DNA from: Acidobacteriota bacterium
GTDB lineage: Bacteria > Acidobacteriota > UBA6911 > RPQK01 > JADFOI01
Direction of reading: 5' to 3'
Assembly: GCA_963663035.1 (NCBI GenBank)
Contig: OY760074.1
Location: 1,184,001-1,248,000, forward strand
DNA: 64,000 nucleotides
Numbering within the stretch: the first letter of the stretch is position 1; each line of letters starts with the position of its first letter. The notes below the pieces were generated by a model, which made no database searches, was not told the DNA's origin, and worked only from the letters and a program-made list of their open reading frames with translations. Made by a program: the position numbers and the translations under genes. Below are positions 11,483-59,752 of the stretch, in pieces.

Positions 11483-11483
11483 C

Positions 11484-11516
11484 CAACTTCAAGGCTCAAG
11501 GTTCATTCGCCGCAGC
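11484..11516 (-). repeat. Orphan copy of the kinase 3' end (encodes LRRMNLEP*)
   Basis: 28/33 identity to 12068-12100, the last codons of the intact kinase. Confidence 0.85.
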
Positions 11517-11609
11517 CCAGCCAGGCAATTGTGGACCGGTCTTTCCCCGGGTGCTATATTGAAGGCGAGCCACGATCATCCGCCTTCATTTTGATGGTCC
11601 TCTTACGCT

Positions 11610-11810
11610 GTGAAAGTCCGAGATGTGATTAAATTGATTGAGAAGGATGGTTGGTCTCTTGTCCGTACTCGCGGAAGTCATCGCCAATTCAAGCATTCCT
11701 CCAAAAGAGGTTTGGTCACCATTTCGGGAAAAGCCAATGATGATTTGGCAGCAGGAACATTAAATAGCGTATGGAAGCAAGCTAGACTGGAGCCTGAGAC
11801 AAAGAAATGA
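11610..11810 (+). CDS. hicA: HicA-family toxin
   Basis: 'DGWSLVRTRGSHRQFKH..GLVTI..DLAAGTLNSVWKQA'; extended -10-like tgctatatt upstream (~11551). Confidence 0.9.
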   Translation: MKVRDVIKLIEKDGWSLVRTRGSHRQFKHSSKRGLVTISGKANDDLAAGTLNSVWKQARLEPETKK

Positions 11811-12022
11811 AGAAATACTTGATTGTAATCGAAAGAACCGAGACAGGCTTTTCAGCCTATTCTCCAGACCTCGAAGGTTGTGTGGCCACCGGAGAATCAC
11901 GGAAGGAAGTGGAGACTGCGATGCAAGAGGCCATCTACTTTCATCTGGAGGGCCTGCAAGAGGAAGGTTACAGTATCCCCGAGCCTCACAGCTACTCCAC
12001 CTACGTTGACGTAGCGGTGTGA
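11807..12022 (+). CDS. hicB: HicB-family antitoxin (short form)
   Basis: 'FSAYSPDLEGCVATGES..EAIYFHLEGL..IPEP'; 4-bp overlap with hicA. Confidence 0.9.
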   Translation: MKKYLIVIERTETGFSAYSPDLEGCVATGESRKEVETAMQEAIYFHLEGLQEEGYSIPEPHSYSTYVDVAV

Positions 12023-12072
12023 GTGTGTGGAAGCTCAGGTAAGCTTTTCATCCGACATAGCCCAGAACAACT

Positions 12073-14439
12073 TCAAGGCATTAAGTTCATCCGCCGCAGC
12101 AGATCCTGGAAGCGAGGGTCGGCATGGAGGGGGTCGAAGAAGGGATTACTTTTGATGAAAGCAACTTGGGGATCGCGTTTACCGACGGCTTGGGTCAGCC
12201 ACTCCAGCGCAAGATCCTCCTCGCCGACGTGCATATAGAGACTTGCTTTATGCCACGCAGGGAGTTGCTCTGAATCTCTGAGGGCCGCTATGGCCTCAGC
12301 TCGATTGCCGGAAGCCAAGGAGCGTAAGACAACAGGAGTAATCGATACATTAGGATTTAAGGAAGCCAATCTTTCTGACTGGGCAATAGCCTCTTCGTGC
12401 ATTCCCTTTTCCCAATACGCCCATGTAAGGATTTGATGTGCACCTGGGTGATCTGGATTCAGTTCCAAGGCCCTTTGTAATTGTTCTATGGCCTCATCGT
12501 ATTGGCCTTTCCAAAGGAACACTACTCCGACAAGCCTGGTTATCTCGGGTGAGAGGGGATCAAGCGTTTGAGCCTTACTCGCTTCCTCAAGCGCTTCATC
12601 TAACCGACTCTGAGTCATCAAGAACGCTCCGTACCAGTGGTGAGCAGTTGGGTAGTTTGGATTGAGTTCAATGGCTCGTTTGAGGTCGGCCTCAGCTGCA
12701 CTCCACTTCCATTCGTAAAGAGCTTTGATGTACCCCAATGAGGTGTGGGCCTCAGCGAGGCTGTCATCGATTTCCCGTGCCCTCTGTGCCGCGGCTTTTG
12801 CCAGTGGGAAGGCATCCTCTGGAGTGCGGTGGTAGTAGTAGGCAAGTAAAGTGTAAGTATCAGCAAGTCCAGCATAGGCCTGGGCATACAAGGGATCCTC
12901 GTCAATCGCCTCATTGAAGAGTTCAACCGCCCGCTCGAATCCGTCCCTGTTTCTCTTGTTCCACCAAAAACGGCCCTCCAGGTAGCTCCGATAGGCCTCA
13001 GGATCCTGTGTGCCCTGCTTCATCATCTGACTCTGGTCCTCTCCGCTGAGCTGCCAGCGAAGGTTGTCAGAGACTTCCATAGCGATCTTCTCCTGCACTG
13101 CCAGGAGTTCAGTTGCCTTTTGGTTGTACTGTTCGCCCCACAGCACCCTGTCGGCTTCCGTATCTATCAGTTCGACATTGACCAACAGGTCCTCACCCTG
13201 TTGGTTCAGCCTCCCCAGCAGCAAGGCACGGACACCCAACTCTTCTGCCACTTGTCGGGAGTTTATCTCTTGGCCTTTGTAATGGAGGACCGACGAAAAG
13301 GGAATGACCCTCACCTGCGGCAACTGGGAAAGGCCGTAGATGATGCTCTGAGCAGCCCCGTCGCTGAGATATTCCATTTCGGGGTCGTCACTCATGTTGA
13401 CGAAAGGTAAAACGGCAATAGAAGTGATGGCCTCCTCTGGTGAGGTGGAAGTAAACGGCACAAGCAATGCCAGAAGTAAAAGGCCAAGGACCACCACTCC
13501 CCCAGCCACCGCAGGCCAGAGGTAACTCCGCTTCGCGGGGGTCGCCGCAGCTACTGCTGAGGTGGCTACTGACTCACCTGATGTATCTCTCTTCAGCCTC
13601 TTGAGGTCCAGCAGCAACTCTTTTGAAGTTTGGCAACGAATCTCCCGATCTTTTTCGAGGGCTTTGTTGATGATGCCTTCTAACGGATCAGGCACATCTG
13701 GATTCAACCTCACAGGAGATGTGGGAGCCTTGGACAGAATCTCATTGAAGACAACCGCAGTCGTGCTTCCCTGAAATGGCAAGCTCCCCGTCGCCATCTC
13801 ATAGAGCACCACACCCAGGGAGAACAGATCTGTCCTGGCATCCAGCTCCTCACCCCTGGCCTGCTCAGGCGACATATAGGCTACCGTCCCCAAGGCGGTG
13901 CCAGGATTGGTGAGAGCCTCCTCCGGCACCTGTGCCGTGGGCATCTTCGAGTCCACCCCGGTCTGCTCCTGGGTCAGCTTGGCCAGTCCAAAGTCCAGCA
14001 CCTTGGCGTCGCCCCGTTGGGTGATGAAAATATTGCCCGGCTTGATGTCCCTGTGAACGATGCCCTTGGCGTGAGCGGCGTCTAAAGCATCGGCAATCTG
14101 AATCCCCAGATCCAGGATCTCATCCGTTGGCATGGAGCGGCCCTGGATGCGGTGGGTGAGAGTCTGGCCCTCCAGGTACTGCATGACAAGGTAAGGCTGG
14201 CTCTTATGCTGACCGATGTCGTAGATGGCACAGATGTTGGGATGATCCAGTGCCGATGCCGCACGAGCTTCTCTCTGGAAGCGTTCCAGTGCCTGTTTGT
14301 TCTGGGCAAACTTCTCAGGCAGGAACTTCAGGGCCACATTGCGGCCGAGCCTGGTGTCCTCGGCCTTGTAGACCACACCCATCCCTCCGCCGCCGAGCTT
14401 CTCTGTGATTTTGTAGTGGGAGATGGTTTGGCCGATCAT
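12073..14439 (-). CDS. Hanks-type Ser/Thr protein kinase with TM segment, TolB-N-like domain and TPRs (intact)
   Basis: GGGGMGVVY, VALK, HRDIKPGN, DFG, YMSPEQ; TM; 'SIAVLPF'; TPRs; C-terminal DPRFQDLLRRMNL. Confidence 0.95.
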   Translation of the reverse strand: MIGQTISHYKITEKLGGGGMGVVYKAEDTRLGRNVALKFLPEKFAQNKQALERFQREARAASALDHPNICAIYDIGQHKSQPYLVMQYLEGQTLTHRIQGRSMPTDEILDLGIQIADALDAAHAKGIVHRDIKPGNIFITQRGDAKVLDFGLAKLTQEQTGVDSKMPTAQVPEEALTNPGTALGTVAYMSPEQARGEELDARTDLFSLGVVLYEMATGSLPFQGSTTAVVFNEILSKAPTSPVRLNPDVPDPLEGIINKALEKDREIRCQTSKELLLDLKRLKRDTSGESVATSAVAAATPAKRSYLWPAVAGGVVVLGLLLLALLVPFTSTSPEEAITSIAVLPFVNMSDDPEMEYLSDGAAQSIIYGLSQLPQVRVIPFSSVLHYKGQEINSRQVAEELGVRALLLGRLNQQGEDLLVNVELIDTEADRVLWGEQYNQKATELLAVQEKIAMEVSDNLRWQLSGEDQSQMMKQGTQDPEAYRSYLEGRFWWNKRNRDGFERAVELFNEAIDEDPLYAQAYAGLADTYTLLAYYYHRTPEDAFPLAKAAAQRAREIDDSLAEAHTSLGYIKALYEWKWSAAEADLKRAIELNPNYPTAHHWYGAFLMTQSRLDEALEEASKAQTLDPLSPEITRLVGVVFLWKGQYDEAIEQLQRALELNPDHPGAHQILTWAYWEKGMHEEAIAQSERLASLNPNVSITPVVLRSLASGNRAEAIAALRDSEQLPAWHKASLYMHVGEEDLALEWLTQAVGKRDPQVAFIKSNPFFDPLHADPRFQDLLRRMNLMP

Positions 14440-14479
14440 CTGTTTGACTCTCCCTCAAAGCGGGTGTGATTCGTCCTAG

Positions 14480-14508
14480 ATCTTAAGCCTTAAGGGGTAG
14501 GAAGGCAA
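14480..14508 (-). promoter_or_regulatory. sigma70-like promoter of the kinase (TTGCCT-17-TAAGAT)
   Basis: Minus strand; homologous boxes at 19099-19127, 24531-24560, 63437-63466. Confidence 0.7.
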
Positions 14509-14517
14509 TGGGAAATG

Positions 14518-14548
14518 TAGCGCGCCCGGCAGGGTTGGGACCTACTAC
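14518..14548 (-). repeat. Degenerate tRNA-Arg 3'-end relic (att-like scar)
   Basis: tagcgcgcccggcagggttgggacct vs tggcgcgcccgacaggattcgaacct. Confidence 0.7.
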
Positions 14549-14583
14549 AGGTGCACGATCCAAGATTCGCGTTTCCCAGATCG

Positions 14584-15690
14584 TCAGTAAGGTGGTGCCA
14601 GGCGGCGGAACCCGTGCAGCAGCACAAACACCAGAAGGAAGAGATTGCGCAAGAGCATGCCCGGCCAGAAATAGCGTACAGGAGAGCCCCTCTGGAACCC
14701 TTCACTGTTCTCTGCCAGTTGATCAGCAATTTCTCTTAAAATCCGGGCACCCCGGGGCCAATCACAGAGGCCATTGAGCCAATCCGCGGGAATCCCCCCT
14801 TCACCGGTGACCGCGCCTGCCAGGGCACCGCTTATGGCTCCTGTGGTATCGGTGTCACCACCGCAGCTCAAGACTGCACTTACGGTGTCTTCAAAAGAGC
14901 CGAAATGCAGGTACCAGGCATAAACCACCACCGGTACCGTGTGGTAAACATATCCGGAGATCCCTTGGGATAGGCCCAGTGAATCTGCAAACTGTTGGAC
15001 AGTGTGCTGCTGACCATAGGCGGTGGCCATCGATTCGAGTGCGGTTTTCCATTCTTGGTCCTGGTGGCCGGCCTGCTCAAGCAGATCCAAAAAGTCCTGC
15101 AGTTCCGGCCTCTCCTCCAGATTTTCCCGAATACTCCAGCCGGCGATCAGTGCCACCGCCTTGGCCCCGGTGAGGGCTCTCGGATCGGTATGGGTGAGTC
15201 GGGTAGAGGCCTGAACGTAATCATTCGTACGCTTCCGGGACAGGGCAAAGAAGGCTCCAATAGGTGCCGAGCGCATGGCGGGACCGTTTCCCGCCGAGTA
15301 GACGCCGCTGCGCAGTGGACTGATGAGCCAGGAACGAAGGATAGACCTCAGGGTGGCAAACCCAATGCCGGGCGGCAGGGACAGGAACCATCCCCTCAGA
15401 CAGCGGGAAAGTCGCCTTACGAAAAGCTCTACTGAGTCAGGATAAGTGAGCAAGCTCTGGGCTACGAAGACGGTATGGTCTGTGTCATCGCTGACCATTC
15501 CCCGGTTGAGCAACAGTCTCTGCCGCCAGCGGCCCGGGAAAAGCTTTCTGGAGCGTGAGGGAGAGATTCCCTCGGCCGGCAGGCCGATGGAGTCACCCAC
15601 AGCGGTTCCCAGCAGTACCCCTCTGAATCTGTCACGACGACTCAACTCCTTCTCCCCAGTTTCTCCTGTTCTTACCGTCGCGCAAAGCAC
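14584..15690 (-). CDS. ADP-ribosylglycohydrolase family protein
   Basis: 'AVGDSIG', 'SDDTD', 'SAGNGPAMR', 'GGDTDTTGAISGALAGA'. Exact start uncertain. Confidence 0.9.
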   Translation of the reverse strand: MLCATVRTGETGEKELSRRDRFRGVLLGTAVGDSIGLPAEGISPSRSRKLFPGRWRQRLLLNRGMVSDDTDHTVFVAQSLLTYPDSVELFVRRLSRCLRGWFLSLPPGIGFATLRSILRSWLISPLRSGVYSAGNGPAMRSAPIGAFFALSRKRTNDYVQASTRLTHTDPRALTGAKAVALIAGWSIRENLEERPELQDFLDLLEQAGHQDQEWKTALESMATAYGQQHTVQQFADSLGLSQGISGYVYHTVPVVVYAWYLHFGSFEDTVSAVLSCGGDTDTTGAISGALAGAVTGEGGIPADWLNGLCDWPRGARILREIADQLAENSEGFQRGSPVRYFWPGMLLRNLFLLVFVLLHGFRRLAPPY

Positions 15691-16622
15691 AGCAGAGTCT
15701 TTGCTTCTCTTCTGATGAGGAGGAAACGGTCGTTGACATCTTCAATGCGACACTCCTCTTGAGTCTCTTCCGAGAGGGCTATCTTCTGGCAGATGTTTCC
15801 CGTTTGGAGATCCAGCACCCACAGAAAATTCCGTCTCGGGTTGGGTTTGACGCAGTTGGGCTTCTCGGGATCAATAGGGACGTAGGCTGGCCGGTCTGAA
15901 ACGAGCAGGAACATGTAATCGCCGTGGTGGCGGTAGGAAAAATAGTTGCCCTCAATGAAATGATTTTCCTTTTCCAGGTGGAAGTGCCAGAGCTGTTCAT
16001 CATCCGATCGACGGCGAGCCAGGTGAAAACCCTTGCTGGTTCTCTGCTCTCGGGGACAGTTCCTATCGGGAGAATGGGCCAGCAGCTCTCCATTTTCGAG
16101 CATCACCCTTCTCTTGCTGTACAGAATCCAGGACGGACTTTCATCCCCGTTCGTCTTCTTGAAGTGGTCTGAAGGAGAAACCTTGCGCAGAAATCGACCC
16201 GTTTTGACGTCTATGATGTCGCCCTGCTCACACAGGCATTCGGATCCTCGAACTGCCACAGGTTTGTCCCGCAACTCGTTGGAAAAGCCAGGAATGAAGT
16301 CCATCAGGCGAAGGAGCTTTCCTCCTTTTTTTCGGTGGGCCGTCCACAGGAGTTCGCCGGTCGCGAGGGAGATCCCATAGCAGCCCTTTGTCAAGGTCCA
16401 GGGTCCGTCTGAGCCCATTTCGCTGGCTACGATGACACTCTCGCTGACTCCGCAAATGGTGTTGGCCTGCCGAAGGCGATGGTCCCACAGGGGTTTGCCC
16501 GTCTGCAAGTCCGCGCAAAACCATTGGCCCAGGGCCCTGTCCTCTAAAAGATGGACGTGCCCGTACCATTGGGTGAGGGAATTGGAAGTGGTGTACTGCC
16601 ACTTGGCTTCTTCATTTACCAT
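15672..16622 (-). CDS. Hypothetical protein with PQQ-like beta-propeller repeats
   Basis: Repeated 'DLQTGKPLW', 'SLATGELLW', 'LDLQTG'; probable start ATG 16622, 6 nt after TATAAT. Confidence 0.65.
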   Translation of the reverse strand: MVNEEAKWQYTTSNSLTQWYGHVHLLEDRALGQWFCADLQTGKPLWDHRLRQANTICGVSESVIVASEMGSDGPWTLTKGCYGISLATGELLWTAHRKKGGKLLRLMDFIPGFSNELRDKPVAVRGSECLCEQGDIIDVKTGRFLRKVSPSDHFKKTNGDESPSWILYSKRRVMLENGELLAHSPDRNCPREQRTSKGFHLARRRSDDEQLWHFHLEKENHFIEGNYFSYRHHGDYMFLLVSDRPAYVPIDPEKPNCVKPNPRRNFLWVLDLQTGNICQKIALSEETQEECRIEDVNDRFLLIRREAKTLLCFARR

Positions 16623-16767
16623 AAAAACATTATAGAAAAGAAGAGGGGGGGAGCGGGGAAGAGCGGGGCGCGCCAGCCTTGACAGTCCCACCTGCCTTGG
16701 ATATAAATTCCCCTAATTCATGCTTGAATTCCAAAACTTAACTTCCGGAAACGCGTTGAGGTGTTCT

Positions 16768-18621
16768 ATGAAAAGACTGGTGATTCTCTTTCTTATCATT
16801 CCCTCATTTCAGGTCGTGGGTTTCTCTCAGCTGCATCCCCTGGTTGCAGAGCAGGGCTATGCGGATAGCATTCTGATGAACGCTAAAATTGTCACCATGG
16901 ATGATTGGAGCACCGTTCCCAATACGCCGGGGACCATCGTTGCTTCGATGGCCATCAAAGGCGAGAGAATTATGGCTCTGGGGACCAAGGAGGACATGCG
17001 GAAACTGGCCGGACCCGATACGCGGTTTGTGGACATAGGCAACCGAACCGTGATCCCCGGCATCATTAATCCCCACTTTCATGCTTTCTCGAGCGCAGCC
17101 AGAACCTATGGTCCCAGCCAGGGCCTCAGCGATCCCAGCATACAGTTGAGGGTCGATGGCGAGACCACGGCGGAAGCTACGGCCAGGAAGATCCGAGAGA
17201 CGGTGGTCAATGCCATCCAGGTGCAAAACATCCCCCCCGGTCAGTGGATCACGGTGGGTCTGACCGATAACAAGGCCAATCCGAGCGGGACGGCCCGGGG
17301 TTGGCTCTATCTCGGTGAGATCAATCGGAGGCAGATCGACGGTGGAACGGAAAATAATCCGGTGGTGGTCACCATGGGGATCCAGGGACTTTTCAACAGC
17401 GTGGCCATTGAGGCGATCAAAGCGGTCTTTGTCGACTGGGAGGAAAGTACCGATCTGGAAAACCGGCCTGGGGCTGGCCGAGACGGCTATGCTGCGGTTC
17501 CCGACATTCAGGGCCTGACCTTTGAATTCTGGTGGAAGGATGAGCCCATTGCCAAGTTGGCGGAAAGCTTGCGCCTGTATGGACACGATACGGTGGCGCG
17601 AGGAGTCACCACCATCGGGACCCGAATTCTGTTCCCCAAGGTGATCCAGGCTTACAACCTCCTGAATCGAGAGGGCACGATGCCCCATCGGCTGGCTTAT
17701 TACGCCGAGCCGCAGAGAGGAAACTTCTGGAATCTCAAAACCATCCACGAATTCTACAAGGGGAGTGGTGCCCCCTGGACCACGCACTCCGCCGGTGGCG
17801 ATATGCTGTGGCTCAACGGGATGTGCAATGAAATCTGGGATTCCGTCGTCAACGAGGTGTGCATGGGGCCCGACATGCCCAATGCCTCGGCTGAAGTGAA
17901 GGCCAAGGAGCGATGCCCCAGCCCCGGGACCAAGCCCTGGGAAACCTACCGGGAGGCCATCGTCAGCGGCTGGCGTCCCGTCCAGGCCCACGGCACCTCC
18001 AGCCATGGTGCCCGCCTCTACATCCAGATGCTGGAGCAGGCCATGGAGGAAGGGAATTTCAGCCTGGAGTACATGCGTGGCCTCAGGACCACCCTCGAGC
18101 ACAACATCTTACTGGGCAAGCAACCGGACGTGATCGCGGGACTCAAGAAGTTCGGGATCATCATCAATGTCAATATGGGAATGCTGGGCGGCGTACCCTT
18201 CAATATGAAGGTTTATGGTCCCGAGCTGGAAGAATATGCCATGCCGGTGAAGACCTGGATCAATGAGGGAATCCGTGTGACCTTTGAGGGGGGAGGGAAC
18301 TGGCGTCCCATCCATACCCTGATCACCCGGGAAGTCACCGTGTCCGACTTTGGAGTTCGTCCCGAACCAGGCGTAGAGCCGGAGGTGGTGGTGCTGCTCC
18401 CCGACGAGGCAGTGGATCGAGTCACCGCCCTGAAGATGACCACCAACTGGGCCGCTGAATATGTGATGGCCGAGGACACCCTGGGATCTCTGGAAGTGGG
18501 GAAGTATGCCGATTTCGCGGTACTGGATAGAGATTTCTTCACCATCCCGATCGATGAGATTCTGGATATTGAGGTCGTGGCCACGGGTCTCAACGGGAAG
18601 CTGGTCTACGACCGCCGATAG
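16768..18621 (+). CDS. Secreted amidohydrolase-3 (YtcJ-like) family protein
   Basis: Signal peptide; 'VIPGIINPHFH'; 'GSLEVGKYADFAVLDRD'; upstream TTGACA-17-TATAAA (16679-16707). Confidence 0.88.
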   Translation: MKRLVILFLIIPSFQVVGFSQLHPLVAEQGYADSILMNAKIVTMDDWSTVPNTPGTIVASMAIKGERIMALGTKEDMRKLAGPDTRFVDIGNRTVIPGIINPHFHAFSSAARTYGPSQGLSDPSIQLRVDGETTAEATARKIRETVVNAIQVQNIPPGQWITVGLTDNKANPSGTARGWLYLGEINRRQIDGGTENNPVVVTMGIQGLFNSVAIEAIKAVFVDWEESTDLENRPGAGRDGYAAVPDIQGLTFEFWWKDEPIAKLAESLRLYGHDTVARGVTTIGTRILFPKVIQAYNLLNREGTMPHRLAYYAEPQRGNFWNLKTIHEFYKGSGAPWTTHSAGGDMLWLNGMCNEIWDSVVNEVCMGPDMPNASAEVKAKERCPSPGTKPWETYREAIVSGWRPVQAHGTSSHGARLYIQMLEQAMEEGNFSLEYMRGLRTTLEHNILLGKQPDVIAGLKKFGIIINVNMGMLGGVPFNMKVYGPELEEYAMPVKTWINEGIRVTFEGGGNWRPIHTLITREVTVSDFGVRPEPGVEPEVVVLLPDEAVDRVTALKMTTNWAAEYVMAEDTLGSLEVGKYADFAVLDRDFFTIPIDEILDIEVVATGLNGKLVYDRR

Positions 18622-18690
18622 ACGGAGGAATTCGGGGACTGTCCCCAAATTCCGTCGTCTGTTGTCAGTTGTCAGGTGTCAGCTGTCAGG
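18621..18690. repeat. REP-like palindrome followed by 7-bp tandem repeats
   Basis: ggaattcggggactgtccccaaattcc hairpin, then tgtcagt/tgtcagg/tgtcagc/tgtcagg. Confidence 0.65.
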
Positions 18691-19068: not shown

Positions 19069-19098
19069 AGTTACTGCTTTCCCAGGTATTTGTTCTAG

Positions 19099-19171
19099 AT
19101 GTTACGCCTGGAGGTCGGGGAAGGCAATGGGCAATATGGCTTGCCCGGAAGCGGCAGGTGTCGAACCTACT
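19099..19171 (-). promoter_or_regulatory. tRNA-Arg 3' relic (19137-19171) plus kinase promoter TTGCCT-17-TAACAT
   Basis: tggcttgcccgg[aagcgg]caggtgtcgaacct resembles the tRNA 3' end with a 6-bp insert; promoter homologous to 14480-14508. Confidence 0.68.
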
Positions 19172-19175
19172 CCGA

Positions 19176-21099: not shown

Positions 21100-22366
21100 T
21101 GACCTTGCCCCCTAAAACGAGTCCAGTTTGAATGTTAGGATTTCCGGTTTAGGAAGGAGGCAAGGATGGCAGGGAAGCGGTTTAGGGCAGAACAGATCAT
21201 CATGAAGCTGCGTGAGGCAGAGGTGGGTCTGGCCCAAGGACAGAGGGTGGGACAGGTGTCGAAGCAGATGGGGGTGAGCGAGCAGACCTACTACCGGTGG
21301 CGCAAAGAGTACGGAGGGCTCCGGTTGGACCAGGCCAAGAGGTTGAAGGTGTTGGAGAAGGAGAATACCCGGTTGGAGAAGCTGGTGGCGGATCTGTCTT
21401 TGGACAAGCAGATCCTGAAGGAAGTGTCCTCGGGAAACTTCTAGGCCCGGCGAACAGGAGACGAGCGGTGATGTGGGTACGAGAGCGATTAGGAGCAGAG
21501 CGAGTCTCCGAACGTCGGGCCTGCCAAGTGCTGGGACAGGTTCGATCGACCCAGCGAAGGGAAAGGCAAATTCCCGATGATGAGGCCCGATTGGTGGCCC
21601 GGATGGTGGAGTTGGCTACGCAATACGGGCGTTATGGCTACCGGCGGGTCACGGCGATACTTCATGGGGAAGGGTGGAAGGTGAATCCTAAGCGGGTGGA
21701 GAGGCTGTGGAGACAAGAAGGGCTGAAAGTCCCGTCCAGACAGCCGAAACGAAGGAGGCTGTGGCTTAATGACGGTTCCTGTGTTCGGTTACGAGCGGCT
21801 CGCAAGAACCACGTCTGGAGCTATGATTTCGTGCATGAACGGACCCATGATGGGCGAGCCTTTCGGCTATTGACGATCCTGGATGAGTACACCAGAGAGT
21901 GCCTCGCCATTGATGTGAAACGGCAGATGAATCACCAAGACGTGTTGGACCGGCTGGCGGAGTTATTCGTTGATCGGGGAGTGCCTGAGTTTATCCGGTC
22001 CGATAACGGATCGGAGTTTACGGCACAGGCGGTCCGGGACTGGCTGCAGGCTGTTGGGGTAAGGACCTTGTACATCGAGCCGGGCAGCCCCTGGGAGAAT
22101 GGGTACATTGAGAGTTTCAACGGGAAACTACGGGATGAGCTGCTGAACATGGAGATCTTCGACACGCTGGGGGAAGCCAAGGTGTTGGTAGAACGCTGGC
22201 GGAGGGATTACAATCAGATCCGGCCTCACAGCGCCTTGGCCTATCGGCCGCCGGCGCCAGAGGCCAAACTACCTAGGTCGCAGGCACTGGATCCAATCCC
22301 TTGGAGTGGACTTCAAATGGTCCCGGGTCTAGCATAGAGGGTGGACTCGTTCGTGGGGGCAGGTCA
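21100..22366 (+). mobile_element. IS3-family element (IS407-like), 4-bp target duplication ATCC
   Basis: TG...CA ends; ~25-bp imperfect TIR; ATCC at 21096-99 and 22367-70. Confidence 0.93.
21166..22337 (+). CDS. IS3 transposase OrfA (21166-21444) / OrfB joined by -1 programmed frameshift
   Basis: HTH OrfA; slippery GGGAAAC at 21432-21438; OrfB 'WSYDF', 'SDNGSEF', '[15 protein letters not shown]'. Confidence 0.92.
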
Positions 22367-22567
22367 ATCCTGGGACCTTTTGGCTCGGATTGTGACTTGC
22401 GACGCTATGGGGAGAGGATTGCTTCCAGAGGAGGAAAAAGCGCCAAGAAGCGAGCCGTGGTGGCGGTGGCTCGTAAACTCTCGGTCCTGCTGCACCATCT
22501 GTGGGTCACAGGAGAGACCTATGAACCGCTGTACAACAATCAAGAGTACCTGGAAGGGGCTGCCTAA

Positions 22568-22881
22568 GAGATTGAACCCAGAAGGGATTCCGGTGAACGT
22601 GACCCGCCCATGGAGTTAACCTCAATGATCCAAATGCCCAGTTCGGGTGACTGCGAACGACCTGCTGTTCCTTCCTTCGGAAGAGAACGAGCCGCAGATT
22701 GCAGCGCCCAGTTTGACGAACCCTTACATGCACCCAGTCCAAATCAAGGGCTGAAAAAGAGTGCGGATGGAAGCAAGGCAAACAAAATCAGCATCACTGG
22801 ATCGATTAAGCGAACTCCCATCAGCTGGCTTAATCACCCGGTCCCGGACTTTTGACCGCCAAGTCGGTCTTGACAAGAAAG
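22568..22881 (+). ncRNA. Putative bridge/seek RNA of the IS1111 element
   Basis: Two stem-internal loop-hairpin units. Loop strands gacctgct(g) 22659-67 and gccgcag 22691-97 match the target. ccttacat 22722-29 and atggaag 22767-73 match the predicted circle junction. RNA boundaries are not determinable. Confidence 0.75.
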
Positions 22882-22895
22882 GGCCTTCTCATGGA

Positions 22896-22935
22896 AGCAG
22901 GTCTTGGAAGCGAGGGTCGTCGCGGAGGGGGTGGA
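22896..22935 (-). repeat. Kinase 3'-end relic, upstream half (PLRDDPRFQDL); continues at 20094-20068 (LLRINLQP*)
   Basis: Joined flanks translate HPLRDDPRFQDLLLRINLQP*, vs the intact kinase DPLHADPRFQDLLRRMNLMP*. Confidence 0.85.
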
Positions 22936-22999
22936 TCCTCCCCCGACTTCTTGAGCTCAGTTCGCTAGGTGAGCTTGGCGGACTAACATCTATCGCTCG

Positions 23000-24333
23000 C
23001 TACTTTGCACAGGTGCGGAACCCCGCGAAAATGTCATTTCGGTAGGGTCGGAAAAAGTTGCGATAGCCATTGCAAGCAAGACGAGAGCGAGTGGCCCAGG
23101 CGCCGCCCTTTAGTACCTTACGATACCCAAACCAAGGGGCAGAATATTCCTGATAAGGAAAATCCACAATGTACCCCGGAAAAGGATAAAAAGGGGAAGC
23201 GGTCCACTCCCACACATTGCCGATCATCTGGCGGCATCCAAAGGCGCTATCTCCAGAGGGAAACGCAGCAACATCGGCGCATCCCAGAGCACGTGAATCC
23301 AGATTGGCACGATCAGGCGTCGGAAACTCATCTCCCCAGGGATACCGTCTCTGGCCTTCAGCGATTCCTCTACCGCCGCTGGAAGGTTTCCCCATGGCGG
23401 ACATTTCCCATTCTGGCTCCGTGGGGAGGCGTCTCCCCGCCCACTGACAATAGGCTTCGGCTTCGTACCAATTGACATGGATTATGGGAGCGTTCTCTTC
23501 AAGGGGGACCAGCTTGTTGAAGTGCCGACGCAACCATCCCTTCTCACCCCGGCTCCAGTAGAGAGGATGCTGGGCTCCAGCCTTGGTCCGCCAAATCCAC
23601 CCTTGAGGACTTCACAGTTCCTGCCGCAGATATCCTCCATCATCCACGAACTCCGAGAACTCGGCGTTGGACACAGGAGCACGATCTATTTGAAAGGAAG
23701 CGGTTTGCACCGGATGTGCCCACTTCTCATTATCGAAGACAAAGGGAAGGTCCGGCGTAGCTCCGAGTTGAAACGTGGCTTCTGGAATTTCCACGTCTCC
23801 AGGCAAAGGGCCTTCGCTCAACTCAGCGGGAGTTCCTTCTGTGTGAGCGGTGGAAAGCTGAGGCAGGGGGTACTCCAGCGGCTGTCTCATATAGGTAAAA
23901 GCCTCCCCATGCATATCCTCGTGAAACACTGACAGAAGATACAAATAGGTTTCCTCGGCGCTGGGTTCACGCGAGGCTAAACGTTCGACAACTAACTTCA
24001 ATGTGTGCTGCATGTAATCCAGAGTTTTCTCTCTTGAAGGGAGAGGTAAAGACCAGCGATCATCGTGGTCAACTGTGAATGAGTTATAAGAATTATCTCC
24101 GTCTTCCATAATCGGATCGATATGATCCAGGCCGCGCAAGAGAAATATGTCGTAAAAAAAGCAACGTGTCCCAGCTCCCAACGAAACGGATTAACGATCT
24201 CAAGCAGAGGGACGTTTAGTTGGTCAACTTCCAGATCGGTGAGCAGTTCCAACGTTCAATCACGAGCATCGTTGACCAGTTGGAGAAGCTCCGAGGCTGG
24301 AAGCTTGAAGTGCTTATCCTTTAGATTGTTCAT
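23000..24333 (-). pseudogene. EgtB/SenA-like sulfoxide synthase (DinB + FGE-sulfatase domains), disrupted
   Basis: 'VNPFRWELGHVAFF', 'FHEDMHGEAF', 'FDNEKWAH', 'RLPTEPEWE', 'GNVWEWT', 'FAGFRTC' spread over 3 frames; in-frame TGA at ~24257. Confidence 0.88.
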
Positions 24334-24357
24334 ACTAGTGAATTCCCCCACAGAGGA

Positions 24358-24483
24358 TCGGGCAGCACCTTAATGGCCACTTCACTGCTGAGATTAGTGT
24401 CCTGGGCACGATGAACCTCTCTCATGCCGCCCCTGGCCAATCTTTTCAGGGATCTTGTAGTGAGACAGAACATTCCCGACCAC
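24358..24483 (-). pseudogene. Ser/Thr kinase 5'-end relic (~41 codons)
   Basis: VGNVLSHYKIPEKIGQG/GMREVHRAQDTNLSSEVAIKVLPD, with 1 extra G; promoter TTGCCT-18-TACCAT at 24531-24560. Confidence 0.85.
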
Positions 24484-24569
24484 AGTGGGCTCCCCGTCTC
24501 CTTCAACGTGTGGGACGTGACTCTTTGTAGATGGTAGACCTTCGAGGGCGGGGAAGGCAATGGTGATGT

Positions 24570-25868
24570 GGTGCCCATTCCGAAAGATGGGTAACAAATT
24601 ATACCGGACACATGGGTAACACTTATAGGCTTCTTCTGGGAGGTGCCCAGAGATGCCATGGAAGGAGATCTGTGTGATGGACGAGAGAATGAGATTTATA
24701 GCGAAGCTGTTGGATGGGGAGTCCATGAGCCGTCTGTGTGAGGAGTTTGGGATATCCAGAAAGACGGGCTACAAGATTTGGAACCGCTATCAAAACACCG
24801 GCGCTTACGCCCTGGTGGATCGGAGCCGCAAGCCGCATCGTTACGGAAACCAACTGCCCGAACAGGTGGAACGGACCCTGGTCAGGCTAAAGCGAGAGAA
24901 GCCGTATTGGGGAGCTCCCAAGATTCGGGCGCTCCTGATTCGTAGGTTTCCGAATGTACGGCCGCCTGCGGTGAGCACAGTTCACGCGGTTCTGGATCGC
25001 AACGGCCTGGTGAACTGTAGAAAACGGCGACGGTTCAAGGCAGAGGGGACTCGATTGTCCAGCAGCCAGAATCCCAATGACCTTTGGTCTGCCGACTTCA
25101 AAGGAGAGTTCATGCTGGGAGACAAACGGTACTGTTATCCTCTCACCGTGAGCGATCACGCCAGCCGTTATCTGCTCGCCATCGAGGCTCTCGACAGTGT
25201 TAAGGAAAGAGGTGCTTTCCCCGTATTCGAGAGAACCTTTCAAGAGTTAGGTTTGCCGGAAGCGATCCGCACGGACAACGGAGTCCCTTTTGCATCACCC
25301 AACGGATTGTTTGGACTCAGTCGACTGGCCGTCTGGTGGCTTAGGCTAGGAATCCGAATCGAGAGGATCAAGCCCGGCCATCCCGAGCAGAACGGAAGGC
25401 ATGAGCGCCTTCATCTCACCCTCAAGAAGGCCACAGTCGTTCCCGCTGCCCACAACCTTCTTCAGCAGCAAGAGAGGTTTAATGCCTTTCAGGCGGAATA
25501 CAATACTGAGAGACCTCATGAGGCCCTGGGCATGAAGTTTCCGTCCGAGGTCTATACTCCCGCATCTTGTCCCTACCGAGGAATCGGGCGCGTCGAGTAC
25601 CCCATGCACGATCGCACCGTGACCGTCACCAGCTGCGGCAGAATCTGTATGAAAAGTCAAAAGATCAACTTCAGCACGGTGTTTGCTGGTCAAGATGTTG
25701 GAATCAAAGAGGTCAAAGAGAAAATTTGGCTGGTGTCGTTTATGGAATACGACCTCGGTTACTTTGACGAAGACAGTAGAAGGTTTGAACCTATAAATAA
25801 CCCTTTTGGTGCAAAGGTGTTACCTATGTCTTCGGAATAAACTGTAACCTATGTGTCCGGAATGCACC
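24570..25868 (+). mobile_element. IS481-family element with doubled terminal motifs
   Basis: Left ggtgcccattccgaaagatgggtaaca..ccggacacatgggtaaca; right tgttacctatgtcttcgg..tgtaacctatgtgtccggaatgcacc. Exact ends approximate. Confidence 0.8.
24653..25840 (+). CDS. IS481-family DDE transposase
   Basis: 'MPWKE', HTH, 'WSADFKG', 'RTDNGVPF', 'QNGRHERLH'. Confidence 0.93.
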   Translation: MPWKEICVMDERMRFIAKLLDGESMSRLCEEFGISRKTGYKIWNRYQNTGAYALVDRSRKPHRYGNQLPEQVERTLVRLKREKPYWGAPKIRALLIRRFPNVRPPAVSTVHAVLDRNGLVNCRKRRRFKAEGTRLSSSQNPNDLWSADFKGEFMLGDKRYCYPLTVSDHASRYLLAIEALDSVKERGAFPVFERTFQELGLPEAIRTDNGVPFASPNGLFGLSRLAVWWLRLGIRIERIKPGHPEQNGRHERLHLTLKKATVVPAAHNLLQQQERFNAFQAEYNTERPHEALGMKFPSEVYTPASCPYRGIGRVEYPMHDRTVTVTSCGRICMKSQKINFSTVFAGQDVGIKEVKEKIWLVSFMEYDLGYFDEDSRRFEPINNPFGAKVLPMSSE

Positions 25869-25877
25869 GATTTTAAC

Positions 25878-25922
25878 TGGCGCGCCCGACAGGATTCGAA
25901 CCTGTGACCTTGGGTTTCGTAG
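25878..25922 (-). repeat. att-like duplication of the tRNA-Arg 3' half (retains CCA)
   Basis: 25880-25922 matches 28965-29007 at 42/43, ending in the anticodon loop. Confidence 0.93.
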
Positions 25923-26211
25923 GTTGAAGTCGCCGGTTTTCACCTCATTTCATCTCAGTGCATCTGAGTTTCTATCATCTTTGGAAACAACACCTTAAAA
26001 CCCAGCGAGTATTTCATCTCACTTTCTCTCATCTTTGTCAGTTTGGCTCATCTCGTTAGATGAAATTAGATTGAGGGGGGCGAATGCAGGGATACTCTGT
26101 CTATTGTTTCTTGTGTGGCCCACGTGCATCATCTAGTATTGGCACTAAGCCCATGCCATTTTGACGGCACCACAACAAGAACCAAAAGGAGAAACAGGGG
26201 AGGGTATCACG

Positions 26212-28110
26212 ATGCATAAACACCATATCTGGATCGCGGCTGTAGTGATCGCTGCAAGCATCTCTGTTGGCGTAGCCCAACAGACCGCCGACACCGTTTT
26301 GTACAACGGCAAGATTTTGACCGTGGACTCGAACTTCACCATTGCACAGGCGGTGGCGGTGCGCGGCAACCGGATTACGGCTGTGGGCACGAACGATGAA
26401 GTGCTCAGGCTGGCCGGGCCGAACACGCGCAGGATTGATTTGAAGGGGAAGACGGTGACGCCGGGGCTGATCCATACACACGTCCATTTGCAAGCGGTCG
26501 GTGCTTATGGCCGCGAACTGGGAACCGTCAAGAGCAGGCAAATATCCCTAAGCGTGAGAGGAATGAAAACTCCGGACGAAGTCCTTCAGCAGATCCGGGA
26601 CATTATTGCAGCTTTCAAGTTTCCGCCGGGTGAGTGGCTCTATTTCTCCCCCAACTGGACGGGAAGTCAGGCTGACCTGATTTTTAACCAGCTAAACGCG
26701 AAGGAACTGGACAAGGCCGCTCCCAACCATCCGATCGTTATGAGGGTGGGAATATCGGCAAATAACATCAATATGTTGAACTCGATGGCTCTTGCGGAGA
26801 TGTGGCGCAAGTACGGACTCTTCATTGAAAGGTATGGGCGCTACTGGGCCGACGAATCGGGCAGGCCGACTGGTATTCTGGAGGCCCCGGCCAGCCAAAT
26901 CGTTTGGGAGGATCAGGAGTTTGGGCTGTTTCCCAAGCCCGAAGACGCGGGCCCGTACTTCAGGAAACTTCTTGTCGAAAACTACTCGTCCGTGGGTATC
27001 ACGACGCTTTCGGGAGCTCTGAATACGGCCAATGTGCAGGCCTATCAGTGGCTGGACTCGCGGGACGAGATGCCGCTCAGATATGCCTATGGGGCCATGG
27101 CGGGGTTTCAGCCAGGCGTGGACATGAAGCAGTACCAGTTGGGCTCCGGCACCGACAATGTTTTCATCTCGTCCGTGACCGCGCGCGCGACCGACGGGGG
27201 CGGTGTCAGAAGGTGTATTGATCTAACCAGAGACAATGAGGCAGTGGCCGATGGGGTCCAGGTCAGCGCCCTGAACTCGGGGGATATGAATGCAGTCGCC
27301 ACCGAGTGGTGGCCGCGGGGCCAGTGCAACCTGGATATTGAGTACAGCGGAAGCACCAGGGGAGCGCGTATTAGCGGCAACCGCTTCCTGGAGTGGTACC
27401 GGGAGGTTGCCGTGGAGGGTCTGCGGTCGGCCAATTCTCACGCCGCGGGAGAGGCATCCATCTACATGATGCTTAACACGTGGGAGCGAATCGACCAGGC
27501 CGATCCGGGATCAGTCAAGGGCTGGGCATTCGACCATTGCACCATGGTTCCTCCCGACGCCATTCCGCGGGCGGCAGCACTGGAACTGATGTTTAGCTGT
27601 AACATGGTAAATGCCATCTCCTCAGACCTGGAAAGAGGAGCCCGGTCGACGCTTGGGGCCTATGGAGCGGATATTCTCAACACCTATGGGGCCCCCATCG
27701 GGAGCATGCTCGAGGCCGGAATCAATGTCTCCTCGGAAGGAGCGTGGGACAGCATTGAAACCATGATCACGCGCCTTGACCACGAAGGGAAGGTCTGGGG
27801 AGCCGATCAGCGCATAGATCGGCGAACCGCCCTGAAAGTGGGAACGCAGAACGGGGCCAATTACGTCCTGAAAGGAGATCAGTTGGGTTCGCTCGAGCCG
27901 GGAAAGTTTGCGGATCTGATCATCCTGGATCGCGATTACATGAGCATGCCGGTGGAGGAGATTTCGGAGATGCGACCTCTGATGACCATGAAAGGTGGCC
28001 AATTTATCTTTTTACGCACCGACTTTTCCGATGAGTACAACCTGAAGCCGGTCGGTGCGGAAATCAGCACGTTTGAGGATTTGCGGGCGCGTCGTCCGGG
28101 ACGTGAATGA
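26212..28110 (+). CDS. Secreted amidohydrolase-3 family protein (paralog of 16768..18621)
   Basis: Signal peptide; 'ADTVLYNGKILT', 'PGLIHTHVH', 'GSLEPGKFADLIILDRD'. Confidence 0.9.
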   Translation: MHKHHIWIAAVVIAASISVGVAQQTADTVLYNGKILTVDSNFTIAQAVAVRGNRITAVGTNDEVLRLAGPNTRRIDLKGKTVTPGLIHTHVHLQAVGAYGRELGTVKSRQISLSVRGMKTPDEVLQQIRDIIAAFKFPPGEWLYFSPNWTGSQADLIFNQLNAKELDKAAPNHPIVMRVGISANNINMLNSMALAEMWRKYGLFIERYGRYWADESGRPTGILEAPASQIVWEDQEFGLFPKPEDAGPYFRKLLVENYSSVGITTLSGALNTANVQAYQWLDSRDEMPLRYAYGAMAGFQPGVDMKQYQLGSGTDNVFISSVTARATDGGGVRRCIDLTRDNEAVADGVQVSALNSGDMNAVATEWWPRGQCNLDIEYSGSTRGARISGNRFLEWYREVAVEGLRSANSHAAGEASIYMMLNTWERIDQADPGSVKGWAFDHCTMVPPDAIPRAAALELMFSCNMVNAISSDLERGARSTLGAYGADILNTYGAPIGSMLEAGINVSSEGAWDSIETMITRLDHEGKVWGADQRIDRRTALKVGTQNGANYVLKGDQLGSLEPGKFADLIILDRDYMSMPVEEISEMRPLMTMKGGQFIFLRTDFSDEYNLKPVGAEISTFEDLRARRPGRE

Positions 28111-28238
28111 GCCGGCGTCTCTGGCCGTGGCTGCTCAGAAATCGAGAAAGTAACTGTACTTGAGCGAGATGACCCGCTCCATCCTTCCAGCATCGGTGGT
28201 TGATGAGCAGGTGTCGAGGTGCCTGAGTGGAAGTGACA

Positions 28239-28808
28239 ATGAACAGGCTTGTTTTGGGCAAATCGTTGGTGCTGGTGGCGTTTGTTGCATCGGCCTTAAT
28301 GTACGGACAAGATATTGCCTCCCTGCAGGAGTCGGTTGGTCCGTCTCTAGACTTGAGTTCTGATATCGAGGGTCCAGGGTGGGAGGTTACGATTACCGTT
28401 AACCTCCGTGTTCCAGTGGACGTGAGGGTCGGAAAAGCCATGAGTGAGATTACCTATCCGATCAAGACTCTCGAGTTTATTGAGGCCATACGCGGTCTGT
28501 CTGCAGAGGCCGTGGGAGCGAAGGTGACTGCAGTTACCGAAGCCCTCGACGGCGATTACTCAATACTGCGGGTGACGATTGCGGCCAAAGAGGGAGAGTC
28601 GATTCCGCAGGGTATTGTCGCCGATCTTCGTTTCATGATTTCCGAGGAGGTGCTTGCTGACGATACCACGGTCCCACTGATCAACCAGGTATCCGCTTGG
28701 TCAGACGAGATCCCTCCAAATCCGATTGAATCCATTACAGGAGAAGACGGGGCAGTGACGATATCCGCGAATCCCCCCGTCTTTGCGTGCTTCTTTTTCA
28801 TGCATTAG
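28239..28808 (+). CDS. Secreted beta-sandwich (cohesin-like) protein ending in ACFFFMH
   Basis: Signal peptide; alternating beta-strand pattern; fold assignment is inference. Confidence 0.55.
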   Translation: MNRLVLGKSLVLVAFVASALMYGQDIASLQESVGPSLDLSSDIEGPGWEVTITVNLRVPVDVRVGKAMSEITYPIKTLEFIEAIRGLSAEAVGAKVTAVTEALDGDYSILRVTIAAKEGESIPQGIVADLRFMISEEVLADDTTVPLINQVSAWSDEIPPNPIESITGEDGAVTISANPPVFACFFFMH

Positions 28809-28860
28809 CCTTTCCCCATCTGTGCGAATTCACGCTTCTGAGGTGACTGTAACTTCCTGA

Positions 28861-28922
28861 GGCTTTGTCAAGTTAAGGCAGAGGCAGGCACAATTGACAG
28901 ATGGAATCGCTTGATCGAGGGC
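28861..28922 (+). mobile_element. IS6 left-end relic
   Basis: ggctttgtcaagttaaggcagaggcaggcacaattgacagatgg... is a diverged copy of 62336-62397. Confidence 0.85.
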
Positions 28923-28965
28923 AGGGAATTGGTTTATCTAACTGATCTGAAAAGAGTTAAGAAAG

Positions 28966-29039
28966 CGCGCCCGACAGGATTCGAACCTGTGACCTTTGGT
29001 TTCGTAGACCAACGCTCTATCCAGCTGAGCTACGGGCGC
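28966..29039 (-). tRNA. tRNA-Arg(ACG), CCA not encoded
   Basis: GCGCCCG-TAGCTCAGCTGGATAGAGC-G-TTGGT-CT ACG AA-ACCAA-AGGTC-ACAGG TTCGAAT CCTGT-CGGGCGC-G cloverleaf. Confidence 0.97.
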
Positions 29040-59623: not shown

Positions 59624-59752
59624 AACTGCCTCCAAATCAACGATAACCAGCTCAAGCTCTTAGTCGTAACCTCCCCTCAGCCGCCTCTAGTGAGTTTCAG
59701 GGCGGTGTGGGTTATTCGGCTGATGGGACTAGGGTTGTCAAGAACTGACGCA

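Follow-up and report, generated by a model that had tools for sequence, protein, structure and literature searches.

A composite, decayed island at the 3′ end of a tRNA-Arg(ACG) gene in an Acidobacteriota genome, probably grown by tandem accretion

The window analysed in this work is a stretch of 64,000 nucleotides (nt) from an Acidobacteriota bacterium (GenBank assembly GCA_963663035.1, contig OY760074.1), designated G000:C1:1184001-1248000, the genome being a single contig of 3.59 Mb with 54% G+C. Downstream of an intact tRNA-Arg(ACG) gene, window positions 11,484 to 29,039 include copies of the 3′ end of this tRNA (relics 1 to 3, counted outward from the tRNA), promoter-like boxes, kinase starts, unrelated genes and insertion sequences (ISs) (Table 1). 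The tract is interpreted here, with moderate confidence, as a composite and decayed genomic island grown by tandem accretion at the tRNA 3′ end; the evidence supports repeated integration at tRNA-Arg(ACG). A sequence-only reading had described three units consisting of a tRNA relic, a promoter and a Ser/Thr kinase, and had attributed them to serial integration of a family of kinase-carrying, integrase-less elements. Serial integration at one tRNA is retained, with relic 1 certain, relic 3 probable, relic 2 marginal and similar copies present in congeners. The element family is not: two of the kinases are stubs, the third appears to belong to the chromosomal flank, the promoter-kinase module is dispersed in the genome and occurs without a relic in the congener G006, and the tRNA-proximal end of the tract carries what looks like an IS6-family deletion scar. 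The process would be a well-known one, tandem accretion and decay at a tRNA in an IS-rich genome, rather than a new class of kinase-spreading cassette. For annotation, the interpretation explains why pseudogenes and stubs follow one another here, and it identifies tRNA-Arg(ACG) as an integration hotspot of the genus.

Integration at the 3′ end of a tRNA gene places the element between two sequences, the tRNA that it rebuilds and the old 3′ end that it displaces. After serial integrations, the elements are the segments between successive attachment (att) copies, and the DNA beyond the last copy is native chromosome. Relic 1 matches the 3′ part of tRNA-Arg(ACG) at 42 of 45 positions without gaps and at 42 of 43 in a local alignment, with a score of 81 as compared with a maximum of 30 in shuffled sequences (0 of 2000 shuffles equalled it). 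It is beyond doubt a copy of the tRNA 3′ end, near-perfect as claimed before, and forms with the tRNA a direct repeat that bounds the inserted segment. No other match besides tRNA-Arg(ACG) itself was obtained from Rfam for positions 10000-31000. The 3′ trailer of the resident tRNA continues without an encoded CCA into ...GCGCGCTTTC / TTTCTT. In relic 1, as in the congeners' tRNA-Arg(ACG) genes and relics, CCA is encoded (relatives were compared as one genome per species in the collection, the congeners being G001-G006). The presence of CCA in relic 1 and its absence from the resident tRNA fit relic 1 being the right attachment site (attR), the old native end, and the tRNA being the left one (attL), rebuilt from element DNA. 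The segment between them (25878-29039) includes solely an amidohydrolase gene and an open reading frame (ORF) of 193 codons. It has kept its att sites but no integration or transfer genes, as is the case in cis-mobilisable elements (CIMEs).

Neither a tyrosine nor a serine recombinase is encoded in the tract, in agreement with the sequence-only reading; the eight PF00589 and two PF00239 matches in the genome all lie elsewhere. A tblastn search with an integrase remnant from the congener G005 found nothing in the window, and no integrase adjoins the tRNA. Because an IS6-family end fragment is located 42 nt from the tRNA, the integrase was likely lost through a deletion that removed the body of this IS together with the tRNA-proximal genes. 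The fragment points toward the tRNA, where the island of G005 has its integrase, and full copies of the same end precede the DDE_Tnp_IS240 transposase genes at 62376-63068 and 58673-59365. These two copies are inverted relative to each other and, in the region 58650-63100, flank a Mutator-family transposase gene and an alpha/beta hydrolase gene in the manner of a composite transposon. An intact 311-aa PF00589 frame is present elsewhere in the genome (G000 ~2,031,051-2,031,983) beside a tRNA-Arg(TCT) gene, the last 29 nt of which are those of tRNA-Arg(ACG). Its product is 35-37% identical to the G005 remnant, is the best relative of that remnant in the genome, and is a lead only, as a candidate integrase acting in trans.

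Six copies of a tRNA-Arg 3′ half were found in five congeners (G001-G005), five of them of the ACG isoacceptor and one of the CCG type (G003:C166). The four ACG-type copies in G001, G002, G003 and G005 all begin with CTACGAA in the anticodon loop, the fifth, in G004, starts a few nt further in and has nearly the same boundary, and the CCG-type copy starts at the equivalent position of the anticodon loop in its own tRNA. A left (P) arm of ~75 nt is common to four of the six copies and, as judged by this similarity, marks one element family. One island, of 4.3 kb in G005:C7, is bounded on both sides. It opens with tRNA-Arg(ACG), followed by an integrase remnant of 148 aa (PF00589, 1.1e-15); an HTH_3 gene and an ORF come next, then a 498-aa kinase behind its promoter box, small ORFs and, last, the relic. 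Together, the kinase-bearing island of G005 and the 3′-half copies of the congeners indicate that tRNA-Arg(ACG) is an integration hotspot in the genus, and that a kinase can be carried as predicted island cargo. Five relics were followed in the relatives and none had a kinase start after it; in G002:C293, what comes after the relic is the final 15 codons of a kinase, and in G005 the other kinase starts examined were all without a relic upstream.

The two outer copies had been claimed as decayed relics at 19137-19171 (relic 2) and 14518-14548 (relic 3); the latter exceeded all of its shuffled controls and the former proved to be marginal. Relic 3 lies 14.4 kb from the tRNA on the same strand and, in ungapped alignment, matches 22 of its last 29 nt. 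At least 21 of 29 matches were reached by 16 sites on both strands of the genome, of which all but relic 3 are tRNA genes or exact copies of tRNAs. The local alignment score of relic 3 was 28, as compared with a maximum of 25 in shuffled sequences (0 of 2000 dinucleotide shuffles reached its score), and when 61-nt windows were aligned with all 51 tRNAs it scored 30, the maximum of 1000 random windows being 28. Relic 3 is therefore judged to be probably a tRNA-derived att copy, and relic 2 perhaps one. Both have the T-stem GTAGG/CCTGC, as compared with ACAGG/CCTGT in the resident tRNA, a change that preserves pairing (A-U to G-C, plus one G.U) and resembles the GCAGG/CCTGC of other Arg tRNAs in the order. 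A pairing-preserving change is the pattern expected of copies of working tRNA ends and not of random decay, which suggests that relics 2 and 3 derive from the end of a functional Arg tRNA different from the one now resident. Their spacing to the box downstream is also alike, with CCA or CTA, 9-10 nt and then TTGCCT. Alignments extended with the conserved left arm of the congener relics were no better. When each of the two relics was searched for with its upstream DNA in 14 genomes of the family, no orthologous region was found, and the searches yielded nothing beyond 33 nt of relic 3 that match a 3′ copy of tRNA-Arg(TCT) type in G011.

The proposed course of events is as follows. Each integration would have rebuilt the tRNA with element DNA and pushed the previous 3′ end outward as a relic, so that three segments would now be arranged from the tRNA outward. 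Segment 1, of 3.0 kb, would extend from the tRNA to relic 1 and carry amidohydrolase A and the 193-aa ORF; segment 2 would extend to relic 2, with the EgtB-like and GmrSD-like genes; and segment 3 would extend to relic 3, with amidohydrolase B, a 339-aa ORF and an ADP-ribosylglycohydrolase gene. Integrases and backbone genes would have been lost later, leaving att-flanked, integrase-less remnants of CIME type, and four ISs and one IS6-family end fragment would have landed in the tract subsequently. The promoter-kinase module after relic 3 would belong to kinase 3 of the native flank, and only stubs would remain after relics 1 and 2.

All three promoter-like boxes described before, TTGCCT followed after 17 or 18 nt by TA..AT, are present, and each is followed by a kinase start of the form xxGxx[IL]SHYK (at 24483, 19068 and 14439). 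However, of the three Ser/Thr kinases claimed only kinase 3 is intact, kinases 1 and 2 being stubs of ~50 and 28-30 codons. Unit 1 retains the kinase glycine loop up to the VAIK region and then breaks, and unit 2 retains the glycine loop only, encoding MVGTTISHYKVIQKIGQGGMGEVYRAEDG before it breaks; the 290 nt after stub 2 include an 85% match to an unrelated place in the genome and the C-terminal end of a gene from a family frequently found ahead of kinases. Stub 1 leads into an EgtB-like gene. In G006:C471 (L032, 581-2130), the same promoter, stub and EgtB-like gene occur at 87% identity with an intact EgtB-like frame (DinB_2, 1.5e-10; FGE-sulfatase, 3e-49). No tRNA-like sequence is present upstream of the G006 module, the homology with the window ending at the -35 box. 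Because an intact stub-EgtB module without a relic is kept in G006, stub 1 is best seen as an old leader of the EgtB-like gene and not as a recently decayed kinase. A complete Pkinase domain is encoded by kinase 3 only (PF00069, 4.4e-51, residues 9-271). Kinase 3, the DUF6498 gene and a methyltransferase gene are syntenic in G002:C255 at 84-89% identity. Given this synteny, and given that kinase 3 lies beyond the last relic, where att logic places native DNA, it would, on the best reading, be chromosomal flank and not cargo.

The distribution of the promoter-kinase unit in the whole genome bears on its origin. The first 290 residues of kinase 3 gave 38 matches at ~37 loci in a tblastn search, and ~13 of the 38 kinase loci are short 5′ fragments of 15-175 residues, often still with the promoter, including unit 1; those in the window are at 19068, 24483 and 63404. 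In an alignment of 17 upstream regions, a common -35 box (ATTGCCTT), a -10 box (TAACAT or TAGCAT), a conserved leader and the first codons were recognised, and the similarity ended ~10-12 nt before the -35 box. A simple sigma-70 scan misses all three boxes of the tract (8 of 12 positions matched, threshold 9), and their function as promoters is inferred from conservation and position. A regular-expression scan of the genome found 51 boxes, of which 19 are followed by a kinase start and 32 are not, and boxes of the same type stand ahead of non-kinase genes in this genome and in the congeners. Over 172-182 aligned columns, identity among the three units is 51-62%, and each is nearer to paralogs elsewhere. 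They are thus, as judged by alignment, not products of one recent local duplication, an origin as near-identical tandem copies having been named beforehand as the alternative that would overturn the sequence-only proposal. The same reading suggested scanning the genome for kinase starts preceded by such a box and a tRNA 3′ fragment. Among the 19 kinase-linked boxes, tRNA-like DNA lies upstream only at this locus, at an intact tRNA-Cys gene (~45 nt away, the sole kinase module outside the locus that follows an intact tRNA) and at a weak 15-nt His-like match. The other relics in the genome (one Pro, two Asp-like, two Asn-like and one Gly) have no kinase start after them; near the Pro relic, a kinase stub begins ~270 nt away on the opposite strand and reads away from the relic. 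The unit is therefore best read as a shared 5′ module of a dispersed family of kinase paralogs, and not as cargo of a new mobile element.

Two candidate relics ahead of kinases were rejected. A tRNA-His relic before a kinase stub promoter (G000 147,600-147,640; 14 of 15 nt, CCA included) is too short, many exact matches of 11-14 nt being found elsewhere, and a tRNA-Ser-like match, ahead of the 1064-kb kinase, falls in a simple CTCCTGAC repeat. The spacing of the His-like match (G000 147.6 kb) to its box is the same as that of relics 2 and 3. In a subgroup of kinase leaders (for example at G000 94.8, 376.4, 1274.1 and 2966.0 kb), a conserved hairpin-like motif, CAACTGCATTGCAGTGAGGGGGAG, lies directly before the start codon, and Rfam gave no match for the kinase leaders inside the window. 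Several full kinases begin at the stop codon of an upstream gene ending in ...INVVLNWFEELK.

Several observations weigh against tandem accretion as set out above. The score of relic 2 against tRNA-Arg(ACG) was 19, which 16 of 2000 shuffles equalled; against all 51 tRNAs it was 24, at about the 99th percentile of random 61-nt windows, with tRNA-Tyr and tRNA-Arg(TCG) as the best partners. Relic 3 is less decayed than relic 2, although it would be the older of the two. The G002:C255 contig stops inside kinase 3, and the native-flank status of the kinase rests on synteny on its 3′ side; moreover, the native flank after tRNA-Arg(ACG) that is common to G001, G003 and G004 does not encode a kinase and is missing from G000. 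At this locus all three att copies are followed by the module, at 9-10 nt in units 2 and 3 and at 19-20 nt in unit 1 once the IS481-family element is removed. With ~19 modules in 3.6 Mb, such an association would be unlikely to arise by chance if the relics are real, and accretion leaves it unexplained. Two exact patterns joining a tRNA end and the promoter box were searched for in 76 genomes of the order (unpublished G017 among them, on which no claim is based). The first matched in 3 and the second in 4 of the 76, the latter comprising unit 2 itself, tRNA-Cys or a copy of it (G005, G001) and one unrelated site, and of the 6 matches outside G000, in the remaining 75 genomes, none has a kinase after it in the DNA available for its locus.

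Strain comparison spoke neither for nor against this interpretation. Contigs from metagenome runs of several studies contained 77-95% of the sampled words of the tract, the runs with lower shares being labelled sponge or marine metagenome. Contigs of four runs from four studies, one of the runs being possibly the source of the assembly itself, were placed on 11000-30900 and showed 0-3 differences across kilobase pieces; at this locus the sampled population has so far proved nearly clonal. The junctions were bridged with 0-1 differences by contig pieces X1, X3 and X9 at relic 3, X1, X2, X3 and X9 at relic 2, and X1, X2 and X3 between the tRNA and segment 1. No strain variation was seen at the locus in these contig data, which are unable to show rare variants, and no att-to-att joint was found among the 15 of 68 contig joints listed, contigs being blind to rare excision. 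The joints listed have short sides (21-39 nt) that map to kinase paralog repeats. Synteny around tRNA-Arg(ACG) is broken on both sides of the tRNA in all congeners.

The repeated association of relic, box and stub would also follow if an ancestral junction of tRNA-Arg, promoter and kinase had been duplicated, incoming DNA having brought a copy of the junction and left relic, promoter and stub ahead of its cargo. Two routes may be envisaged, namely single-crossover homologous recombination and imprecise excision from an earlier host, in which a host junction is picked up as in specialised transduction. Such an origin explains stubs of arbitrary length (28 and 50 codons) joined to unrelated DNA, the same spacing of relics 2 and 3 to the -35 box and their T-stem variant unlike that of the resident tRNA, and divergence of the units to 51-62% identity is what different donors would give. 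However, the postulated native junction was found in no genome of the order by the pattern searches, the stub-EgtB fusion is older than the split of G000 and G006 and stands in G006 without a relic, the spacing in unit 1 differs (19-20 nt), and each module is nearer to paralogs elsewhere than to the other two. Taking both routes together, junction duplication is considered possible but unlikely.

It is also conceivable that the 3-kb segment ending at relic 1 represents the only real integration, with relics 2 and 3 being chance or unrelated GC-rich sequence and the rest being chromosome scrambled by ISs and recombination. With all tRNAs admitted as partners, the score of relic 2 does lie in the range seen for random windows, the genome is rich in ISs and in kinase fragments (~13 of 38 kinase loci being short), congener synteny is broken on either side of the tRNA, and the orthologs of amidohydrolase B lie at a different tRNA in G003 and G006. 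These points are countered by relic 3, which scores above all 2000 shuffles, is unique in the genome at its level of match and exceeds the best of 1000 windows (30 against 28), and by the pairing-preserving T-stem variant and -35 spacing that relics 2 and 3 share. A single integration is hence regarded as rather unlikely.

The proposal of the sequence-only reading, that relic, promoter and kinase with their cargo are small integrase-less cassettes inserted serially at tRNA-Arg by an integrase acting in trans, and that kinases spread in this way, fares less well and is considered unlikely. Two of its three kinases are stubs of 28-50 codons. The intact one is syntenic in G002 and lies past all the relics, and no att copy comes between it and the conserved flank. 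Moreover, tRNA-like DNA precedes the 19 kinase-linked boxes only at the locus, at tRNA-Cys and in the weak His-like match, the other kinase starts examined in G005 have no relic upstream, the Pro, Asp-like, Asn-like and Gly relics have no kinase start after them, and the stub-EgtB module of G006 lacks a relic. Against this stand the module within ~10-20 nt of all three att copies once the IS is removed, the kinase inside the G005 island at tRNA-Arg(ACG), the relic that abuts kinase fragments in G002:C293, the constant end of module homology ~10-12 nt before the -35 box, as if at a fixed 5′ edge, and the 311-aa PF00589 frame beside tRNA-Arg(TCT) as a candidate integrase. A narrower variant, in which tRNA 3′-end copy, promoter and kinase leader form a portable, att-linked leading end of integrase-less cassettes that insert serially at Arg tRNAs via the tRNA-Arg(TCT)-linked integrase and so give their cargo a strong promoter, is compatible with the fixed module edge, the kinase-carrying G005 island and the association in three of three cases at the locus, and would bring a ready-made promoter to kinases, the EgtB-like gene and amidohydrolases, but is improbable.

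Apart from the island, the tract revealed an insertion habit of its IS481-family element, the presence of which between relic 1 and the first promoter was confirmed. The transposase has the domains rve_3 (2.9e-15), rve (5.3e-10), HTH_32 and HTH_28, and LZ_Tnp_IS481 at 29 bits (cut-off 22.2), which places it in this family, and the ends of the element, TGCCCATTCCG... and ...CGGAATGCA(CC), are imperfect inverted repeats. Twelve copies of the 1.3-kb element occur in the genome: nine full ones with 100% identity, another with 95%, a truncated one and an interrupted one; those outside the window are at G000 363, 397, 763, 775, 1496, 1678, 1925, 2113, 2824, 2878 and 2947 kb. All 12 abut a tRNA or tRNA-like 3′ end, and in every case the transposase gene is antisense to the tRNA. 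Eight are located at intact tRNAs (Pro-GGG, Pro-TGG, Pro-CGG, Ala-CGC, Ile-GAT, Phe-GAA, Met-CAT and Gly-GCC), three at 3′ copies (Arg relic 1, a Gly-CCC copy, and a Pro-TGG relic that lies 11 kb away from its tRNA) and one at an uncertain T-arm-like remnant. Exactly 9 nt separate the IS end from the encoded CCA in nine of the 11 clear cases; the spacer is 10 nt at Ile, and Phe has no encoded CCA. Resident tRNA-Arg(ACG), without an encoded CCA, has no copy, and relic 1, with CCA, has one. No consistent target-site duplication was identified in the nine full copies. In relatives, a 95% identical copy lies beside tRNA-Ile in G004 (L039) and a 65% identical one beside tRNA-Ser in G026 (L041), and two other 65% relatives have no tRNA in the short flanking DNA examined. 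The element is a tRNA-3′-flank-specific insertion sequence. No report of a tRNA-flank target for the IS481 family was found in literature listings and abstracts, which are not proof that none exists.

Two further arrangements involve this element. tRNA-Pro(TGG) and its 3′-half copy 11 kb away bound another integrase-less island (G000 763305-776099), with an IS481-family copy at both ends and a kinase stub just inside the distal end, pointing inward. At G000 1677922-1678840, tRNA-Gly(CCC) is preceded by the truncated IS481-family copy and by a second, partly deleted tRNA copy with the same 9-nt spacer, an arrangement that points to IS-linked duplication of the tRNA.

The features of the tract are collected in Table 1. 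The cargo listed by the sequence-only reading (amidohydrolases, HNH nuclease, ADP-ribosylglycohydrolase, EgtB-like gene and HicAB) was located in full, and to it are added the IS3- and IS110-family elements, a 566-bp repeat and the IS6-family end fragment, all missed at that stage. Among the matches listed, none from the six congeners was found for the ADP-ribosylglycohydrolase, the 339-aa ORF or the GmrSD-like gene. The 566-bp repeat, with further copies at G000 66.4, 87.8 and 842 kb, contains ORFs without a Pfam match and may be a non-autonomous element. Paralogs of the Amidohydro_3 genes adjoin tRNA genes in relatives (L013, G012:C15; L015, G003:C119; L016, G006:C6; L023, G005:C11), at sites after tRNA-Ala(TGC), ~1.85 kb from tRNA-Leu(CAG), and between tRNA-His and tRNA-Arg(TCG), the last two tRNAs being adjacent in G003. 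Amidohydro_3 genes may accordingly be frequent cargo at tRNA flanks.

Table 1. Features of the tract and its borders, listed from the tRNA outward (window positions; G-numbers denote relatives).
Feature	Position	Strand	Remarks
tRNA-Arg(ACG), intact	28965-29039	-	Read as attL
IS6-family end fragment, 62-63 nt (inverted repeat and leader)	28861-28923	+	42 nt from tRNA 3′ end
ORF, 193 aa	28227-28808	+	No Pfam family; segment 1 cargo
Amidohydrolase A (Amidohydro_3)	26161-28110	+	Segment 1 cargo; orthologs (87%) elsewhere in G005 and G012
Relic 1	25878-25922	-	45-nt copy of tRNA-Arg(ACG) 3′ part, anticodon loop to encoded CCA; attR of segment 1
IS481-family element	24571-25868	+	Transposase 24653-25840; inserted 9 nt after relic 1 CCA, before box 1
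Promoter-like box 1	24531-24560	-	TTGCCT, 18 nt, TACCAT
Kinase 5′ stub 1	24330-24483	-	~50 codons, frameshift; probable leader of EgtB-like gene
EgtB-like gene (DinB_2 and FGE-sulfatase)	23000-24330	-	Broken by frameshifts; intact in G006:C471
566-bp repeat	22367-22932		Three further copies, 99-100% identity
IS3-family element (HTH_Tnp_1 orfA, rve orfB)	21166-22337	+	
IS110-family transposase	20208-21131	+	
GmrSD_C (HNH-type) nuclease-like gene	19176-19970	-	
Relic 2	19137-19171	-	T-arm-like stretch AGGTTCGACACCTGCCG...CGGGCAAGCCA; statistically marginal
Promoter-like box 2	19099-19127	-	TTGCCT, 17 nt, TAACAT
Kinase 5′ stub 2	18985-19068	-	28-30 codons; fragments of other genes follow at 18695-18994
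Amidohydrolase B	16720-18621	+	Orthologs (86%) ~1.85 kb from tRNA-Leu(CAG) in G003 and G006
ORF, 339 aa	15672-16691	-	Weak PQQ_2 beta-propeller hint
ADP-ribosylglycohydrolase	14584-15690	-	
Relic 3	14520-14548	-	Decayed tRNA-Arg 3′ end, 22/29; probably outermost att copy, hence island boundary
Promoter-like box 3	14480-14508	-	TTGCCT, 17 nt, TAAGAT
Kinase 3	12073-14439	-	Intact, 788 aa, Hanks-type Pkinase and TPR repeats
HicA/HicB toxin-antitoxin	11610-12022	+	Other DNA instead in G002
DUF6498	10781-11482		Left of HicA/HicB

In Streptococcus, ICESt1-related integrative elements are described as accreting in tandem and then decaying to CIMEs (PMC5704250). The tract resembles them, as far as they are outlined there, in that direct repeats of the target 3′ end bound its segments and several att copies appear serially at one tRNA, and segment 1 in particular has kept attL and attR in the absence of integrase and transfer genes. 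It differs from the ICESt1-type CIMEs in having no recognisable backbone of an integrative and conjugative (ICE) or integrative and mobilisable element (IME), two of its three att copies decayed, and four ISs. In the tRNA-linked tycheposon islands of Prochlorococcus, as sketched in a preprint (10.1101/2020.12.28.424599), serial integration pushes older elements outward, and fragmented integrases and partial tRNAs are scattered. Repeated integration at one tRNA, partial tRNAs and adaptive, non-mobile cargo are common to both systems. However, the present tract belongs to another lineage, has no tyrosine recombinase or replication module left, and has an integrase remnant only in the congener G005. 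As no backbone gene survives, membership of the tycheposon family cannot be claimed, and the tract is not assigned to any other named element family either.

Kinase 3, with a complete Pkinase domain, a TPR tail and ~37 related loci in the genome, is like other Hanks-type Ser/Thr kinase paralogs, unlike units 1 and 2, which are non-coding stubs, stub 1 probably being the leader of an EgtB-like gene. The IS481-family element shares a fixed short distance to tRNAs, a fixed orientation and a 'safe haven' with the tRNA-targeting elements Ty3, TRE and Dada and the type V-K CRISPR-associated Tn7-like elements, as these are described in PMC5006619, PMC3706591 and PMC11406308. It differs from them in being a plain 1.3-kb DDE/rve element with no guide RNA system, in using the 3′ flank 9 nt after CCA, and in accepting 3′-half relics as targets. 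Its habit would thus represent a clean bacterial case of safe-haven targeting of tRNA flanks by a simple insertion sequence.

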